From: a virus
DNA length: 64,000 nucleotides
Strand: one strand, 5' to 3'
Virus record (IMG/VR): IMGVR_UViG_3300001846_000239
Span: 14,281-78,280 of that record
Position 1 is the first letter of the stretch. Each line of letters opens with the position of its first letter. Positions 5,883-23,504 of the stretch are shown one piece after another. A program made the translations under genes and the position numbers. A model generated the notes under the pieces. The model was given only the letters and a program-made list of their open reading frames with translations, was not told the origin of the DNA and searched no databases.

Positions 5883-5956
5883 ATAACAAATACGTCTAAA
5901 AAATATATACTTTTTTTCAAAAAAGTGTGTACAAGTACGCTGAAACATCGTATAAT
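5883..5956 (+). promoter_or_regulatory. Early promoter with upstream A-tract/T-tract stem-loop
   Basis: TGTACA 5928-33, 17 nt, TATAAT 5951-56; upstream 52 nt match 31613-31664 at 45/52. Confidence 0.8.
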
Positions 5957-9690: not shown

Positions 9691-10356
9691 ATGAAAATAT
9701 CAAGTGAAACTATTAGTATCCTCAAAAACTTTGCGGGTATCAATTCGAATCTAGTCTTTAAACCTGGAAAGGAACTCAAGACTATTTCCGAAGCAAAAAC
9801 AATTATGGCAAAAGCCTCTATCCTAGAAGATTTTCCAGGTGAGTTCGGTGTATACGATCTCAACGAGTTTTTGTCATTGTATAATCTTATGAATGATCCG
9901 GATCTTACATTTACAGATCACTATTTGATCATGTCCGACGGATCTCAAAAGATTAAGTATTTCTATTCTGAGGTAGACATTCTTACACAACCAAGTAAGG
10001 ATATCAATATGCCAGAGTGTGAAGTTGTATTGGATCTGACTATGGAAAACCTACAGAAGATTCAAAAAGCGGCCGCTGTTCTTGGTCACTCGGAATTGAG
10101 TTTTAGTAGTAAAGGTGGTGACGTTGTAGCATCTGTCTTTAATGAAAAAGATGCGACTGCGAATACTTTTGATATCGATCTAGGTACTACATCTACTGAA
10201 ACATTCAACTACGTCTTTAGCATCGCTAACCTTAAGATGCTTCAAGGTGATTATAAAGTATCGATTTCATCTAAGCTAATTTCTAATTGGCGCAACGCGG
10301 ATAATCCTTTAGATTATTATATCGCTTTAGAGAAATCATCAAGTTTCGGTGTATAA
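9691..10356 (+). CDS. 45: Sliding clamp gp45
   Basis: LKNFAGINSNL, FGVYDLNEFL, YYIALEK. Confidence 0.93.
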   Translation: MKISSETISILKNFAGINSNLVFKPGKELKTISEAKTIMAKASILEDFPGEFGVYDLNEFLSLYNLMNDPDLTFTDHYLIMSDGSQKIKYFYSEVDILTQPSKDINMPECEVVLDLTMENLQKIQKAAAVLGHSELSFSSKGGDVVASVFNEKDATANTFDIDLGTTSTETFNYVFSIANLKMLQGDYKVSISSKLISNWRNADNPLDYYIALEKSSSFGV

Positions 10357-10359
10357 ATA
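10352..10359 (+). promoter_or_regulatory. T4-type late promoter
   Basis: TATAAATA at end of gene 45. Confidence 0.6.
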
Positions 10360-10402
10360 AATGTGCACAGAAAAATTCTCATATACATTATGAGGATAAT
10401 GC

Positions 10403-10428
10403 GAGAAATGCCGACGGTCGGGTTTCTC
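10403..10428 (+). promoter_or_regulatory. Structured 5' leader hairpin (copy 1)
   Basis: GAGAAA-TG-CCGA-CGG-TCGG-G-TTTCTC; same architecture as 15194-15219. Confidence 0.65.
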
Positions 10429-10463
10429 AAAATTAGTCTATAAACTTTGCAAAGGAGAAGAAA

Positions 10464-10739
10464 ATGACTGAAGAAGTAAACGCAGCTGTAGATGCTGCAC
10501 CAGAGGAGCAAGTTGCTCCACAACTTTCACTACAAGATATCGCTACAGTAGTACAAGTAATTGATATTTGTTCTAAGCGTGGCGCTTTCGAAGGTAGTGA
10601 ACTAGAAGCAGTTGGCGCTGTAAGAACTCGTATTGTAGCATTCCTACAAGCGGCAGCCCCTGCTCAAGGTGAAGAAGTTTCAGAAGGTGAAGTACCTGCT
10701 GGCGACGATCTTCCTACCGAAGAAGCTGAAGTAGCTTAA
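10464..10739 (+). CDS. Conserved T4-like hypothetical protein
   Basis: SD AAGGAG; LSLQDI...IDICSKRGAF.G.EL..VG core. Confidence 0.7.
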   Translation: MTEEVNAAVDAAPEEQVAPQLSLQDIATVVQVIDICSKRGAFEGSELEAVGAVRTRIVAFLQAAAPAQGEEVSEGEVPAGDDLPTEEAEVA

Positions 10740-10754
10740 TCGAAGTAGCTTAAT

Positions 10755-10780
10755 GCGAGGGTAGCTCCCTCGCGTTTTAT
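10755..10780 (+). terminator. Intrinsic terminator
   Basis: GCGAGGG-TAGCT-CCCTCGC followed by GTTTTATT. Confidence 0.8.
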
Positions 10781-10805
10781 TAATTTTTATTATGAAGGAT
10801 ATATT

Positions 10806-11063
10806 ATGGATCGCAATGAATGTTCACGCTTAATTGAAGCGCTTCGAAAAGGTACAGTTACTGTTACCTTTCAAAAAATTGACTCTGACGAAATACGAGT
10901 CATGCCTTGTTCTCTCAACCCTGCTGTTTTAGAAGCAAATGGTGTTAAAGCCACAATTGATTCTATTAGTCCAGATTCAGACCATTTAGCGGTTTGGTCT
11001 TTGGATAAAGATGCATGGAGATCTTTCCGCGTATCAACGGTTCTTGGTTGGGAGGTACTATAA
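10806..11063 (+). CDS. WYL-like/SH3-barrel protein (DUF2693-like)
   Basis: VTVTFQKID...R.M.C...VWSLDKDAWRSFR. Confidence 0.6.
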   Translation: MDRNECSRLIEALRKGTVTVTFQKIDSDEIRVMPCSLNPAVLEANGVKATIDSISPDSDHLAVWSLDKDAWRSFRVSTVLGWEVL

Positions 11064-11998
11064 TGTCAGAATTTCTTTGGGTTGAAAAATATCGTCCACA
11101 AAAAATTCAAGATTGTATTTTACCAAAATCAATCAAGAAAACCTTTGAAGATATTGTTAGAGGAGGTGACCTACACAATATGCTTCTGACCGGAACAGCC
11201 GGCCTGGGTAAAACTACAGTTGCGAAAGCTTTGTGCAACGAACTTGAACTAGATTATCTTCTTATCAATGGATCCGAAGAATCTGGCATCGATACATTAC
11301 GTAACAAGATAAAACAATTCGCGTCTACTGTATCACTTCAAGGTGGCTATAAAGTAGTCATCTTAGATGAGGCTGATTACCTCAATGCACAATCAACACA
11401 ACCTGCTTTGCGTGGTTTCATCGAAGAGTTTTCTAACAATTGCCGTTTTATTTTGACGTGTAATTTTAAGAATCGAATCATTGATCCATTGCATTCTCGT
11501 TGTACAACAATCGAGTTTAATGTTTCTAAGAAAGATTCAGCTCCACTTTGTGGACAATTCCTTCATAGAGTTTGTGATATTCTTGAAAATGAGAATATTA
11601 CTTATGATAAAAAAGTAGTTGCTGAATTAATTATGAAACACATGCCAGATTGGCGTAAAGTTCTTAATGAACTTCAACGTTACAGTAGTAGCGGCGTTAT
11701 CGATTCAGGCATTTTAGTATCTTTATCGGAAGTATCTCTTAATGATCTTATGCTCCATCTTAAGGGAAAAAACTTTAAAGGTATGCGTCAGTGGGTGAGC
11801 AACAATATTGACTCTGAACCTGCGGCAATTTATCGTAAAATTTATGATAATATGAATGACTATATTGAACCACAAAGTATACCTCAATTGGTACTTATTT
11901 TGGCGGACTATCAATATAAAAATTCATTTGTTGCAGATCACGAACTTAATACTGTTGCTTGTCTTACTGAGGTAATGGCGGGGGTTCAATTTAAATGA
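11063..11998 (+). CDS. 44: Clamp loader large subunit gp44
   Basis: LWVEKYRP, GTAGLGKTT, DEAD, SRC; start moved to ATG 11063 (SD GGAGG). Confidence 0.95.
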   Translation: MSEFLWVEKYRPQKIQDCILPKSIKKTFEDIVRGGDLHNMLLTGTAGLGKTTVAKALCNELELDYLLINGSEESGIDTLRNKIKQFASTVSLQGGYKVVILDEADYLNAQSTQPALRGFIEEFSNNCRFILTCNFKNRIIDPLHSRCTTIEFNVSKKDSAPLCGQFLHRVCDILENENITYDKKVVAELIMKHMPDWRKVLNELQRYSSSGVIDSGILVSLSEVSLNDLMLHLKGKNFKGMRQWVSNNIDSEPAAIYRKIYDNMNDYIEPQSIPQLVLILADYQYKNSFVADHELNTVACLTEVMAGVQFK

Positions 11999-12375
11999 GC
12001 CCCTTCGATTACTTAAACGCAATCAACACAACTAAAAAGGATATTATGGTTGACGATATTGCTGAAAAGGCATATCCGGCTTTTATGGTAAATCGTGGGC
12101 TTTCGTATTTTCCAGACACTATTCTTTTTGCTAATGAAATGAATGTTAATCATCATATTGATAATAGGCTTCAGTTTGATTTTTTTATAAATATAATCAG
12201 TAAGAAGAAAAGATTCTCTAAATGGGCAAAACCTATTGATATAGATAATCTTGAACTGGTAAAAGAATATTATGGATATAGTACTGAAAAAGCTAAATCC
12301 ATTTTGCCATTACTAAATGATGCACAAATTAACGAATTGAAATTAAGGATTTACAAAGGTGGAAAACGAAAATAA
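11995..12375 (+). CDS. 62: Clamp loader small subunit gp62
   Basis: FMVNRGLSYFPDT, KKRFSKW, VKEYYGYS. Confidence 0.93.
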   Translation: MSPFDYLNAINTTKKDIMVDDIAEKAYPAFMVNRGLSYFPDTILFANEMNVNHHIDNRLQFDFFINIISKKKRFSKWAKPIDIDNLELVKEYYGYSTEKAKSILPLLNDAQINELKLRIYKGGKRK

Positions 12376-12784
12376 TACTGAAGTAAAGTGGTCTCCAGCT
12401 TCGATGCTAGAAATCACTTTAAACGAGCCCGACGATTTTTTAAAAATCAGAGAAACCCTGACACGTATTGGAGTAGCTTCTCGTAAAGATCAAAAGCTAT
12501 ACCAATCATGTCATATATTGCACAAGCAAGGTCGATATTTTATCGTACATTTTAAAGAATTGTTTTTACTAGATGGGAAACCTTCTAATTTATTGTTGAA
12601 TGATGTTCAACGTAGAAATACTATTGCCACACTGTTGGCTGACTGGGGACTAATTACTTTTGTTTCTGCGGATCAGGCTAAAGATATTGCACCACTCCGA
12701 CAAATCAAAGTAATTCCTTATAAAGAAAAAAGTCAATGGCAATTATGCCCTAAGTATAATATTGGTAATAGCAATAAGGAGTAA
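12359..12784 (+). CDS. regA: Translational repressor RegA
   Basis: DDFLKIRETLTRIG, QSCHILHKQGRYFIVHFKELF. Confidence 0.95.
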   Translation: MENENNTEVKWSPASMLEITLNEPDDFLKIRETLTRIGVASRKDQKLYQSCHILHKQGRYFIVHFKELFLLDGKPSNLLLNDVQRRNTIATLLADWGLITFVSADQAKDIAPLRQIKVIPYKEKSQWQLCPKYNIGNSNKE

Positions 12785-12791
12785 ATAGTTT

Positions 12792-13478
12792 ATGGCTATT
12801 GGTTCAACTGGAGCTGTATCATTATCCACTGTTCAAACTGAATTTGGTGGAAGTAACCCAATTGGGATTAACGAATATTATGGAGTAAACTCAGATCCAT
12901 ATAAAGTTGTGCCTAGATCTGGAACAATCTCACTGGATGATTTTTATGATACTTCAAAGCGAACTGCAGAGCTAACATTAAAAACTTCTTATGACACAAA
13001 TGCTCGTTTCGGTTGGAGTGTTTATAAAGGTTCGAGCTATATTGTATCAGAAAGCGGTCAGTCAGATTCGGGTTTTGGTAGTATCTCTCGTATCGATGGT
13101 CTTTTTAACTATGGTCCAATAACCTGTATAGTTGGAGAAGATACTTCTGAATTAAATCCTTTTAATCCAAGGTACAATATTGTAATAGGTACTCGCGGCG
13201 GTTATAATAGCGGATGGACTAGAATCGATTTTAGATATACGGCCAATTCGTATACGCACGATCATGCTAACGCCGGCACCGTTTACCAGAAAAGTATATA
13301 TAGAACTGGAGCTGATTCGTTCGTTCAAATGTCTAATACTGCGGTAAACGGGACTTACGCTTATGCTTGGATATATGGTAATGGTAGTTGGACTAGTGAC
13401 GAACTAGCTATTTTTTACTTGCTTCGAAGCGCACTAAATACTGGGTCGACCCACTATTGTTCGATAAGAGTTTATTAG
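12792..13478 (+). CDS. Virion fibre/decoration-type protein
   Basis: N-terminal SLSTVQTEFGGSNPIGINEYY...SGTISLDDFY module typical of marine phage tail-associated proteins; Gly/Ser/Tyr-rich body. Confidence 0.55.
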   Translation: MAIGSTGAVSLSTVQTEFGGSNPIGINEYYGVNSDPYKVVPRSGTISLDDFYDTSKRTAELTLKTSYDTNARFGWSVYKGSSYIVSESGQSDSGFGSISRIDGLFNYGPITCIVGEDTSELNPFNPRYNIVIGTRGGYNSGWTRIDFRYTANSYTHDHANAGTVYQKSIYRTGADSFVQMSNTAVNGTYAYAWIYGNGSWTSDELAIFYLLRSALNTGSTHYCSIRVY

Positions 13479-13488
13479 GAATTAAAAA

Positions 13489-14028
13489 ATGTATAACAGA
13501 TATGAAATTATAAGAATTGATGCGGTTGAGAATGTAATAAAAGTAAAGTTTGAAAGTGATACTTTACCTACTTATTATGATCAACAATACTATGATCCAG
13601 TTATTGGATTGTCTGAAGAAATACTAGCAGAAATTATATTTAATTTGCAAATGAAAGCAGTAAAATACGCCAGCAAATTAGAAGAAGCAGTAGAGTTTAC
13701 TCCTGAGTCAATGACAGGAGATTTAAAAGAACTTACACTAGTCGATTTGCCGGAGTTTAATCCGTTATATCAAAGAGTCGTAGAAACTTGGGAAGAAACA
13801 GAAACTACTAAAACCCAAGTATTAACCGTAACTGATTTAACGGATAGCGATAAGGCTGCATTCATTCGACAAAAGCGTAATATATTATTGGCTGATACCG
13901 ATATTGAAGCACTAGGTGATAGAACTATGAGCACTGAAATGCAAGACTATCGCGCAGCACTAAGAAATATTACTGATCAAGAAACATTTCCACAATCAGT
14001 TATCTGGCCAATTTTACCTATTGGATAA
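13489..14028 (+). CDS. Tail fibre assembly chaperone-like protein
   Basis: C-terminal R.KRN.LL..TD....D......YR.ALR.IT.Q..FP..V.WP. Confidence 0.65.
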   Translation: MYNRYEIIRIDAVENVIKVKFESDTLPTYYDQQYYDPVIGLSEEILAEIIFNLQMKAVKYASKLEEAVEFTPESMTGDLKELTLVDLPEFNPLYQRVVETWEETETTKTQVLTVTDLTDSDKAAFIRQKRNILLADTDIEALGDRTMSTEMQDYRAALRNITDQETFPQSVIWPILPIG

Positions 14029-14031
14029 GTT

Positions 14032-15063
14032 ATGGCTAAACTTAAATATTATGCGTTATGCAGTAAAAACATAAATGCTGCTAAAAGACACCTAGCTCGT
14101 ATTCCAAAAGAAGATCTAGTAATAGTTATAAACACATTGTTAGATACTGATGAAAGATGGGCATTTCATAACCAAACAGTTGCTTGGTGTGAAGCCGAAG
14201 GAATCGAGCATTACGTTACTGAAAGTGACGGAACTCCTTCTACTGGAAAAAATTCAGTATTTGATTTGTTCCTAGCTTCAGATAACGACTATATGGTACT
14301 AGTTGATGGTGATGATTTTATTACTCCCCATGGACTAGTAGTATATGACATGATAGCGCAATCGGATAATCCACCCGATGCAGTTGCCTTGGAATATCAG
14401 TATGGACTTGTTCCAAATGAAGGATATCATCCTGGTGAAGCTTGGATGCATCTTCATGGAGAAAATGTAGGTAAAGCAAATGCCGCTGATATTACAAATC
14501 CGGATCATATTCATGGGTTTGGACTAAGAATATTCCAACACCCGTATGACTGGTGGCAAAAAGCATTAGCCGGAGAATCTGTAAAGGTTTGGGATGAGTT
14601 TACTCAAGAATGTTCTGATGCGCATCAAAAATTATATACGTACGAGTATAATAATATTAATGGCTGGGAAAGTCACTTAAGAATTACTTTTTATTCTAGG
14701 CATGGTGCCACGTACAGGTTTGATCCTGAACTTTTAGTTGGTGAAGACACAATGCAATATTTTAGAATGAAGTACGATATGTCATTAGGAACTTTTGATC
14801 TAAGACATCTAAATGAAATATATCCAACATACGTATATGATCAAAGAATTGAAGGAATTGTTCGATTCGCAAATGAAAGAGATGATGGTCGCGGTTGGTT
14901 AAACTGGATGAATAAGCTCAACGATGAATTTGACAAGTGGGATGCTGCTGGTAAATTTGTCGATGTAGAAGTACCTTCAGTTGATTTACCTGATTTCGCG
15001 GATGATTATCGACCTGACACTCTTGGATTAGTTAACTATCCGCATAAAAACCCAAGATATTAA
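14032..15063 (+). CDS. Putative GT-A glycosyltransferase
   Basis: YMVLVDGDDF DxD motif, GED motif. Confidence 0.5.
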   Translation: MAKLKYYALCSKNINAAKRHLARIPKEDLVIVINTLLDTDERWAFHNQTVAWCEAEGIEHYVTESDGTPSTGKNSVFDLFLASDNDYMVLVDGDDFITPHGLVVYDMIAQSDNPPDAVALEYQYGLVPNEGYHPGEAWMHLHGENVGKANAADITNPDHIHGFGLRIFQHPYDWWQKALAGESVKVWDEFTQECSDAHQKLYTYEYNNINGWESHLRITFYSRHGATYRFDPELLVGEDTMQYFRMKYDMSLGTFDLRHLNEIYPTYVYDQRIEGIVRFANERDDGRGWLNWMNKLNDEFDKWDAAGKFVDVEVPSVDLPDFADDYRPDTLGLVNYPHKNPRY

Positions 15064-15064
15064 T

Positions 15065-15166
15065 ATGATACAAAAGATAAAAGACAAATTAAAACAGTTT
15101 CATAAGCTTATGAAATCTGGTAGACTTAGTAAAATAATAAACAAAAGTTTACAAAAAAATATTTAA
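15065..15166 (+). CDS. Small basic hypothetical peptide (33 aa)
   Basis: Read by hand: MIQKIKDKLKQFHKLMKSGRLSKIINKSLQKNI. Confidence 0.35.
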   Translation: MIQKIKDKLKQFHKLMKSGRLSKIINKSLQKNI

Positions 15167-15183
15167 ACTGGCAAGATTGCTGG

Positions 15184-15219
15184 TATAAATATATTCGGAT
15201 GCCGATGGTCGGGTCCGAA
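15184..15219 (+). promoter_or_regulatory. Late promoter plus structured leader hairpin (copy 2) of hsp20
   Basis: TATAAATA 15184-91 then TTCGGA-TG-CCGA-TGG-TCGG-G-TCCGAA 15194-219. Confidence 0.7.
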
Positions 15220-15253
15220 AAATTAACCTTGCTATATATAGGAGGAAACTAAA

Positions 15254-15709
15254 ATGGTAAGAAGTACTATGAACGTACCACGTTCACTATTCATTGGTTT
15301 TGAACCAATACTAAACGAACTCGAAAGAATCCACTCAGCTGGAAGAGCTCAAGATAATTATCCACCCCATAACGTTGTAAAGGTCGATGATGAAAACTTC
15401 ATTATTGAACTAGCGGTTGCTGGGTTCTCGGAAGAGGACATTTCAATCGAAGTCAAAGACGGAATTCTTTTAGTTCAAGGTCAAAAAGCTTTTGATGACG
15501 AACGCGAATACGCACACAAAGGTATCTCATCCCGCAAGTTTGAAAAGTCCTTCCGACTTTCTGAATTTGTCGTAATAGATGGTGCCGATCTTGTGAATGG
15601 CATACTCGTGGTGAATGCCAGGGTTGAAGTTCCAGAAGAAAGGCGTCCTAGGAAGATCGAAATCGGATCTGCTGGGGCATCAAAGAAGAAGGAATTTATT
15701 CAAGACTAA
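15254..15709 (+). CDS. hsp20: Small heat-shock protein Hsp20 (IbpA-like)
   Basis: NYPPHN, IELAVAGF, HKGISSRKF, NGIL; SD AGGAGG. Confidence 0.93.
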   Translation: MVRSTMNVPRSLFIGFEPILNELERIHSAGRAQDNYPPHNVVKVDDENFIIELAVAGFSEEDISIEVKDGILLVQGQKAFDDEREYAHKGISSRKFEKSFRLSEFVVIDGADLVNGILVVNARVEVPEERRPRKIEIGSAGASKKKEFIQD

Positions 15710-15900: not shown

Positions 15901-15927
15901 ATGAGGGGGGAAACTCCCTCATTTTTG
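15901..15927 (+). terminator. Intrinsic terminator
   Basis: ATGAGGG..GAAA..CCCTCAT stem then T-run. Confidence 0.8.
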
Positions 15928-23347: not shown

Positions 23348-23423
23348 GCGCCCGTAGTTCAGTGGATAGAACAACGGTCTTCTAAACCGTAGGTCACAGG
23401 TTCGAATCCTGTCGGGCGCGCCA
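23348..23423 (+). tRNA. tRNA-Arg(TCT)
   Basis: 76-nt cloverleaf: acceptor GCGCCCG/CGGGCGC, anticodon arm ACGGT-CTTCTAA-ACCGT, GGTTCGAATCC, encoded CCA. Confidence 0.95.
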
Positions 23424-23427
23424 ATTA

Positions 23428-23504
23428 CGGAACATAGCACAGTCTGGTAGTGCACTGCCTTTGGGAGGCAGGGGTCGTAGGTTCGAATCCTACTGTTCCG
23501 ACCA
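23428..23504 (+). tRNA. tRNA-Pro(TGG)
   Basis: 77-nt cloverleaf: acceptor CGGAACA/TGTTCCG, anticodon arm CTGCC-TTTGGGA-GGCAG, GGTTCGAATCC, encoded CCA. Confidence 0.95.

Follow-up and report, generated by a model that had tools for sequence, protein, structure and literature searches.

ROSE elements form the commonest class of bacterial RNA thermometers and are known as chromosomal leaders driven by heat-shock promoters. In PMC3669281 and PMC11182007, their temperature-sensing hairpin is defined by a U(U/C)GCU strand that pairs with the Shine–Dalgarno (SD) sequence and leaves one G bulged. In the ibpA leader of Pseudomonas, as Krajewski, Nagel and Narberhaus (2013, PMC3669281) describe it, hairpin II pairs U(U/C)GCU with the SD, is the sensor and alone still confers thermoregulation; hairpin I is G+C-rich and does not melt, its disruption derepresses translation, and the authors suggest that it aids folding and stabilizes the mRNA. 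We here analyzed a 64,000-nucleotide (nt) window, positions 14,281 to 78,280 of the viral record IMGVR_UViG_3300001846_000239, in which one RNA hairpin stands in the leaders of two genes, a small heat-shock gene (hsp20) and an open reading frame (ORF) of 91 amino acids (aa). Judged from its sequence, this repeated hairpin is the hairpin I of a ROSE-like leader of the short, two-hairpin Pseudomonas ibpA type, here located behind a phage late promoter. An initial annotation of the window had noted the hairpin and missed that it is one half of such a leader; the regulatory half at hsp20 is the next hairpin, at 15227–15245. We favor, with moderate confidence, a reading in which hairpin I would stably clamp the 5′ end of a ROSE-like leader for translational control and hairpin II would mask the hsp20 SD until released by temperature.

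The two copies of hairpin I, GAGAAATGCCGACGGTCGGGTTTCTC at 10403–10428 and TTCGGATGCCGATGGTCGGGTCCGAA at 15194–15219, are both 26 nt long and, like all leader and gene features discussed below, lie on the plus strand. Both are part of the minimum-energy folds of their leaders. As the initial annotation had it, they occur at these positions with these sequences, and their lower stems (GAGAAA/TTTCTC and TTCGGA/TCCGAA, respectively) differ completely yet both pair. Above the lower stem, the 10403 copy has a core of U.G pair, bulged G and C-G pair; the 15194 copy has the U.G pair, the bulged G, a CCGA/TCGG stem and the loop TGG. What had been called a UG/G internal loop is drawn by Rfam as a U.G pair plus a bulged G. 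The assignment of the genes had been swapped: the 10403 copy belongs to the leader of the 91-aa ORF (10464–10739), and the 15194 copy sits 35 nt 5′ of hsp20 (15254–15709, Pfam family PF00011). The shared core TGCCGANGGTCGGG has two copies in the window, both on the plus strand, versus 0.19 expected, and only 1 of 100 shuffles gave two; the entire 112,994-base viral record also holds two. A structure-aware scan of the record, allowing any lower stem followed by UGC, an upper stem and GG, returned both leader hairpins and two coding-region matches without leader context, where shuffles averaged 0.9 matches.

Homology to the short Pseudomonas ibpA thermometer, represented in Rfam by ROSE_3 (RF02523), emerged from a permissive Rfam search. 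The hsp20 leader aligned with this model end to end at 32.8 bits (expectation value E 2e-5), and so did the leader of the 91-aa ORF at 24.6 bits (E 2.5e-3). Both hairpin I copies align to ROSE_3 positions 1–27 with high posterior probability, and the model's consensus for its first hairpin, GAUGCCGAA.GUCGGGUC, equals the repeated hairpin motif. Either copy shows the GAUGCCGA..GUCGGGUC hairpin with eight lower pairs, the bulged G and three upper pairs. ROSE_3 consensus positions also agree with the Pseudomonas ibpA leader of PMC3669281, as judged by loop residue G15 and the CCGC mutation at 23–26. The Pseudomonas and phage systems are alike in having two hairpins before an IbpA-type gene, a near-identical hairpin I, GAUGCCGA-loop-GUCGGGUC, with U.G pair and bulged G, and a hairpin II that pairs U(U/C)GCU with the SD; in both, hairpin I lies within a few nucleotides of the transcript start, which in the phage is a predicted one. 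They differ in that the phage leaders are virus-borne and A+U-rich, score below the Rfam cut-off, follow a T4-type late promoter rather than a sigma-32 promoter and have a hairpin II predicted to be roughly half as stable. Moreover, in the clade of the window the start codon region is a further possible partner of the UUGCU strand, and the 10403 copy is followed by a 3′ half that is not ROSE-like.

The element recurs widely in viral genomes. Scanning IMG/VR for the exact 14-base core gave 121 matches, of which about 32 were genuine A+T-rich phage leaders and the rest mostly G+C-rich chance matches; in the genuine leaders the lower stem varies freely and stays paired. From these we built a covariance model, R1. 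Of 80 further viral hsp20 loci, 77 have an R1 match directly 5′ of hsp20, and of 80 loci with a homolog of the 91-aa ORF, 78 have one 5′ of that homolog; linkage to both genes is near-universal. Cultured phages with an R1 match 5′ of hsp20 are the cyanophages S-SM1, S-SSM4 and MED4-213 and phage C48C1. In S-SSM4 (HQ316583.1), the leader match at 269–334 ends at an AUG about 45 nt 5′ of the annotated hsp20 start (coding sequence from 377), and the deposited start codon may lie too far downstream. A covariance model was needed because the conserved blocks are shorter than the blastn search word; blastn of the 82-nt leader against cultured phages yielded A/T-rich chance matches only. A scan of bacterial contigs for the core plus YTYGCT gave one genuine bacterial ROSE element among the 120 matches listed, the others being chance.

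Covariation strongly supports both hairpins at the RNA level. In an alignment of 76 distinct hsp20 leaders fitted to R1, 91.4% of cells were paired, compared to 72.4% in shuffles and 40–55% with slid partners, and 252 cells carried double changes versus 86 in shuffles. Compensatory changes were seen in 10 of the 11 pairs of hairpin I, and RNAalifold, predicting independently, recovered the same helices. In hairpin I, the three pairs under the U.G pair are formed without exception, and pairing then falls outward to 84%, 66% and 47%; near-fixed are the U.G pair itself (64/72), the bulged G and the next C-G pair (72/74). The 48 distinct leaders of the 91-aa gene, aligned with plain MAFFT and not fitted to a model, gave 95.9% paired cells and 108 double-change cells versus 30 in shuffles; here 9 of 11 hairpin I pairs have compensatory changes, and the U.G and C-G pairs are kept in 48/48. 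Accordingly, the conserved, covarying, cis-acting RNA structure common to both leaders that the initial annotation had postulated was borne out by the covariance model and by the covariation counts in homologous leaders.

The conserved U.G pairs favor an RNA element over a DNA palindrome. A DNA-level or transcriptional element, that is a promoter-proximal palindrome acting as operator or terminator, would be in line with the perfect inverted repeat and its position 2 nt past the hsp20 late box. We nevertheless regard it as highly improbable: the conserved U.G/G.U pairs would not match on the other strand, nor within a symmetric operator, and hairpin I of the 91-aa leader lies 43 nt away from its late box. 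A terminator was rejected as well, with no T-run on either strand and neither hairpin found in a terminator scan.

In the hsp20 leader, hairpin II (15227–15245) pairs CCUUGCUA (15227–15234) with UAGGAGG (15239–15245). UUGCU at 15229–15233, with G15231 bulged, thereby lies opposite the SD AGGAGG (15240–15245), as also given by the ROSE_3 alignment. These pairs are conserved across the family and covary, with the extension pair being UA in 34 and AU in 27 leaders. The U(U/C)GCU/bulged-G/SD arrangement is kept in nearly all hsp20 leaders (U.G 69/76, C-G 74/76). Folded in isolation, hairpin II adopts the bulged-G ROSE register with −7.6 kcal/mol at 10 °C, −6.0 at 20 °C, −3.5 at 37 °C and −2.4 at 45 °C. 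At 37 °C the ROSE_3 consensus hairpin II reaches −7.8 versus −3.5 kcal/mol in the window, so that the phage hairpin, about half as stable in these models as the Pseudomonas/ROSE_3 one, is consistent with a lower working temperature. The hsp20 leader thus combines a small heat-shock gene, the U(U/C)GCU–SD pairing with bulged G and two hairpins. By sequence and structure it fits the definition of a ROSE-like thermometer but stays below the Rfam threshold; that it senses temperature is what we infer.

Hairpin I (15199–15202/15212–15214) and the SD hairpin (15229–15232/15241–15243) share an identical local geometry of Watson–Crick pair, U.G pair, bulged G and C-G pair. Hairpin I is in effect a G+C-clamped copy of the sensing core, a likeness that does not appear in the excerpts of PMC3669281.

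How such a leader might act can be sketched from these features. A T4-type late promoter would start hsp20 transcription at the foot of hairpin I. Being G+C-rich and stable, hairpin I itself would sense nothing; capping the 5′ end, it would protect the mRNA and keep its own strands from disturbing the weak hairpin downstream. Hairpin II, with UUGCU and its bulged G on the SD (15227–15245), would open with rising temperature and release Hsp20 translation. We hence propose that hairpin II, by pairing UUGCU to the SD, holds back Hsp20 synthesis and releases it on warming, and its lower stability would suit cooler sea water. By analogy to Pseudomonas, a stabilizing and folding role of hairpin I is probable. 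Of the two functions that the initial annotation had offered, protein binding or stabilization, the latter fits the proposal made for Pseudomonas ibpA hairpin I in PMC3669281 and the predicted 5′-end position; nothing indicates a protein partner.

The promoter position would agree with a 5′-terminal hairpin at hsp20. Its T4-type late-promoter box, TATAAATA, lies at 15184–15191, 2 nt 5′ of hairpin I. Of 70 distinct hsp20 leaders, 64 carry a TATAAATA-like box with at most one mismatch just 5′ of the hairpin. The spacing is fixed: the core's UGC has its U 8–9 nt past the box in 46 of these 64. The first paired nucleotide comes 4–5 nt past the box in 39 of 64, as far as promoter spacing can tell, and pairing conservation drops sharply about 5 nt 3′ of the box. 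T4-type late promoters start transcription about 6 nt past their box. Therefore the hsp20 helix would begin at the 5′ end of the transcript. From this box spacing, hairpin I would cap the predicted hsp20 late transcript in the geometry of a stabilizer hairpin. An IMG/VR search for a late box followed by hairpin I gave 97 distinct cases, 82 of them followed by hsp20 and 5 being hsp20 leaders ended by a contig edge; the remaining 10 were discarded as chance matches without a lower stem. Bacterial mRNA can carry a 5′-terminal stabilizer hairpin, as in the ompA 5′ untranslated region. The phage leader would resemble this type in having a stable stem-loop at or near the predicted 5′ end, with the hsp20 helix about 5 nt past the late box at the expected start. 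At the 91-aa gene, in contrast, hairpin I would be internal; only processing of the RNA, or a second start past the invariant GATAAT, would place it at a 5′ end. PMC3669281 likewise cites ompA for a stabilizer role.

Several results weigh against the ROSE-like reading. ROSE_3 has a gathering cut-off of 43 bits, which neither window leader reaches and which none of 20 further phage hsp20 loci reached (best 32.3 bits); the best of 20 loci of the 91-aa gene scored 28.9 bits. The promoter of hsp20 is of the late phage type and not a heat-shock promoter. Upon nearest-neighbor folding of 75 hsp20 leaders and 130 control genes from the same loci, the hsp20 SD was no less, and rather more, accessible than that of the controls (median unpaired 0.67–0.71 versus 0.41–0.50), so that the predicted extra masking failed, and the bulged-G register appeared in only 7 of 75 minimum-energy folds. 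Folding both window leaders as a whole from 5 to 50 °C predicted little change in SD or AUG accessibility. The 48 distinct 91-aa leaders lack U(U/C)GCU; the leader in the window has CUUUGC instead, and its SD is predicted to be open. In addition, the minimum-energy fold of the window hsp20 leader pairs CUUGCUAU with AUGGUAAG in the start codon region, at −8.1 kcal/mol compared to −3.4 for the SD hairpin.

With much of this evidence a constitutive brake and stabilizer without thermometer function would agree, in which two late mRNAs would live longer thanks to hairpin I, and the helices further 3′ would fix translation at a low rate or delay it within the infection cycle, whatever the temperature. 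Such a brake would account for the flat folding prediction, for an hsp20 SD not unusually masked in silico and for a 91-aa leader without the ROSE motif. It would also suit the late promoters of both genes and the ocean habitat of the phage, in which heat shock seldom occurs. We consider it rather unlikely all the same, as a plain brake needs no imperfection such as the near-universal U(U/C)GCU/bulged-G/SD geometry of the hsp20 leaders. Moreover, nearest-neighbor energy models ignore the non-canonical pairs on which ROSE helices rely, and for this reason the negative SD-masking result weakens the thermometer reading without ending it.

The competing CUUGCUAU:AUGGUAAG helix joins window positions 15228–15235 with 15254–15261. 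Across leaders, the UUGC strand pairs with its own start region at a median of −6.9 kcal/mol and with control gene starts at −2.3. This complementarity exceeds that to controls (Wilcoxon p = 0.007, 20 distinct coding starts). When the two largest clades were swapped against each other, discrimination was only partial. By this pairing the UUGCU strand may mask the AUG, either in place of the SD or in addition to it.

The second copy of hairpin I stands in a longer leader. All 48 distinct leaders of the 91-aa gene have one layout, from 5′ to 3′ TATAAATA, a hairpin 0, GGATAAT, hairpin I, AAUUAGUCU, a CUUUGCAAAGGAG hairpin and AUGACUGAA. The late-promoter box, at 10352–10359 in the window and present in most of the 48 homologous leaders, lies 43 nt 5′ of hairpin I with another hairpin intervening. 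The initial annotation, which had both hairpins following TATAAATA, therefore was right about an adjacent box at hsp20 only, and hairpin I is internal to the predicted late transcript of the 91-aa gene. Hairpin 0 (10375–10397), specific to this leader, is part of the minimum-energy fold, and its 3′ arm enters GGATAAT. It has 96.7% of cells paired, with compensatory changes in 2 of 5 pairs and frequent U.G pairs; its arms covary as CUCAUA/UAUGAG, CUCCCAU/AUGGGG or CCUUGUUAU/AUAAUAAGG. GGATAAT is invariant after hairpin 0 (48/48). From GATAAT (10395–10400) to the hairpin I core there are 8 nt, which matches the spacing from TATAAATA to the core at hsp20, and given this equal spacing, RNA might be newly initiated or processed at the foot of hairpin I. 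We may speculate from the motif that GGATAAT is the −10 element of a second promoter or a processing site.

Downstream of hairpin I, AAUUAGUCU is invariant and the CUUUGCAAAGGAG hairpin is weak. The invariant UUAGUC box (10433–10438) is complementary to GACUGA of codons 1–3 (10466–10471) in both the minimum-energy fold and the RNAalifold consensus. These six pairs are kept in 48/48 leaders and hardly vary, so that they receive no covariation support, in contrast to the other helices of this three-helix leader. It is plausible from these folds that the UUAGUC:GACUGA helix masks the first codons of the 91-aa ORF. Its SD, GGAG at 10454–10457, lies in the weak CUUUGCAAAGGAG hairpin (−0.2 kcal/mol at 37 °C), and folding predictions leave it about 90% unpaired. 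Since U(U/C)GCU is absent and the SD predicted open, a thermometer for the 91-aa gene would be an analogy only. The gene behind the 10403 copy is not a small heat-shock gene. The hairpin I module would have been recruited into a longer leader, between hairpin 0 and the UUAGUC mask on the first codons. What sets this window apart, and is new, is the reuse of hairpin I before the 91-aa gene, where the putative mask of the start site is another one. It implies that hairpin I is separable from the sensing hairpin and reusable on another gene, which bears on the role of ROSE 5′ hairpins in general.

Alternatively, as in the protein-binding idea of the initial annotation, a phage or host protein, or else the ribosome, could bind hairpin I specifically, and its invariant core would join hsp20 and the 91-aa gene in one regulon. 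In line with a binding site, U.G (64/72 and 48/48), bulged G and C-G (72/74 and 48/48) are near-invariant in an otherwise freely covarying helix, the hairpin is kept where the downstream half of the leader differs, and its core repeats the geometry of an SD/anti-SD helix. No candidate protein was found, however, and according to PMC3669281 Pseudomonas hairpin II alone still thermoregulates. The jumbo-phage homologs of the 91-aa ORF have no hairpin I. Furthermore, because the same core occurs in Pseudomonas and in one alphaproteobacterial ROSE element, any partner of hairpin I would have to be universal. We hence hold a dedicated binding site to be quite unlikely. What points to co-regulation of the two genes, as the initial annotation had suggested, is the common hairpin I together with the late-type promoters; the 3′ halves of the leaders differ. 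Similarly doubtful, in our view, is a bolder variant in which hairpin I would be an autonomous, sequence-specific module, its invariant core imitating the SD/anti-SD geometry of the sensing hairpin and read by a common factor such as the ribosome, an RNase or a phage protein, and hsp20 and the 91-aa gene would form a small regulon with the 91-aa protein as a hitherto unrecognized Hsp20 partner or regulator.

The 91-aa protein itself (10464–10739, phrog_13789) is acidic, with a helix-loop-helix core at residues 23–64 and disordered acidic tails (model with a predicted local distance difference test, pLDDT, of 78.9). Its family counts 887 representatives at E ≤ 0.001, some with two domain copies, and is abundant in marine viral contigs; the leader flags it as possibly linked to Hsp20. 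Searches of Pfam, of a PDB sequence profile, of the PDB with Foldseek and of the ESM Atlas found no relative of known function, and BFVD returned uncharacterized phage proteins only. Homologs occur in the jumbo phages Atu_ph07, Phosso, SCTP-2 and the PA5oct group, where they have sigma-70-like promoters and neighbors that carry no Pfam domains and are unrelated to those in the window. The annotation of the PA5oct homolog as IF-2-like is probably spurious. In the collection searched, no cultured cyanophage had a homolog.

Other thermometers before small heat-shock genes resemble the phage leader to different degrees. Rhizobial ROSE (RF00435) and enterobacterial ibpA ROSE_2 (RF01832) share the U(U/C)GCU/bulged-G/SD hairpin, and one alphaproteobacterial ROSE example begins with the same GGAUGCCGA..UCGGGUCC hairpin as the phage leaders. 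Those leaders, in contrast, are longer and have three to four hairpins, and neither model matched the window even at E ≤ 10. In cyanobacteria, which probably include the hosts of related phages, hsp17 and similar thermometers likewise control small heat-shock genes at translation; as described in PMC4477652 and PMC4152365, they are single short hairpins with neither hairpin I nor U(U/C)GCU. At gathering thresholds Rfam assigned no family to either leader and found two tRNAs only in the window, so that the Rfam search proposed in the initial annotation bore fruit only below the cut-off, with ROSE_3. A match of the 91-aa leader to 'freshwater-2', with similar layout (15.2 bits, E 3.8), was rejected as it did not recur in 20 homologous leaders.

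Among phages, a 2024 paper lists as RNA thermometers lambda cIII, SPbeta blyA and a Caudoviricetes sigma-70 leader only (PMC11182007). The hsp20 leader is like them a phage-encoded leader whose folding would control ribosome access; they, in contrast, are fourU-type or alternative-structure switches, none ROSE-like or on hsp20. The expectation that such leaders might already be described for cyanophage hsp20 or psbA thus did not hold: no Rfam family reaches its cut-off and the phage-thermometer literature lists other elements. Full-text searches turned up no paper that describes a ROSE-like leader for hsp20 of phages, and a paper on cyanophage small heat-shock proteins does not mention leaders. 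Because their scores fall below the ROSE_3 cut-off, these leaders are missed by Rfam-based annotation; routine annotation has overlooked them on nearly every sampled viral hsp20, cultured cyanophages included. If they do sense temperature, ocean phages would adjust their own chaperone output to the water temperature during infection. The cultured cyanophages S-SM1 and S-SSM4 make this directly testable.

The window derives from an uncultured marine T4-like myovirus, whose DNA polymerase is 47–52% identical to those of T4-like cyanophages; no psbA was found in the 113-kb record. Local gene order is gp45 clamp, 91-aa ORF, WYL_2-like ORF, gp44, further ORFs, hsp20 and gp43. Hsp20 (15254–15709) is an IbpA-like small heat-shock protein of 151 aa (PF00011, E 3.3e-16; phrog_432, E 1.6e-33). 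A terminator scan placed terminator-like hairpins 3′ of hsp20 at 15905–15919 and 3′ of the 91-aa ORF at 10752–10776. Either gene looks like a single-gene late unit of TATAAATA box, leader, gene and terminator-like hairpin. The box TATAAATA has 13 copies in the window, all on the plus strand.

Both late units lie among replication genes that bear another, strongly over-represented promoter-like motif. This motif, TGTACA-N16-18-TATAMT, mostly TGTACAA...TGnTATAAT, has 12 copies in the window versus 0.17 expected, on the plus strand at 5928, 8155, 9633, 15930, 15960, 18514, 21540, 27723, 32752, 44419 and 49851 and on the minus strand at 2155. It stands just 5′ of a cobS-like gene, gp45 and gp43, among others. 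With an unusual TGTACA box that resembles a −35 element, the motif seems to represent a class of early or middle promoters specific to the phage; the TATAAATA late boxes differ from it.

Between the two late units, a 228-aa ORF at 12792–13478 has no PHROG match and a weak, sub-threshold Pfam Piwi match (E 0.002, residues 155–225). Farther downstream are two neighboring tRNA genes, at 23348–23420 and 23428–23501, with Rfam tRNA scores of 76.8 and 69.5 bits.

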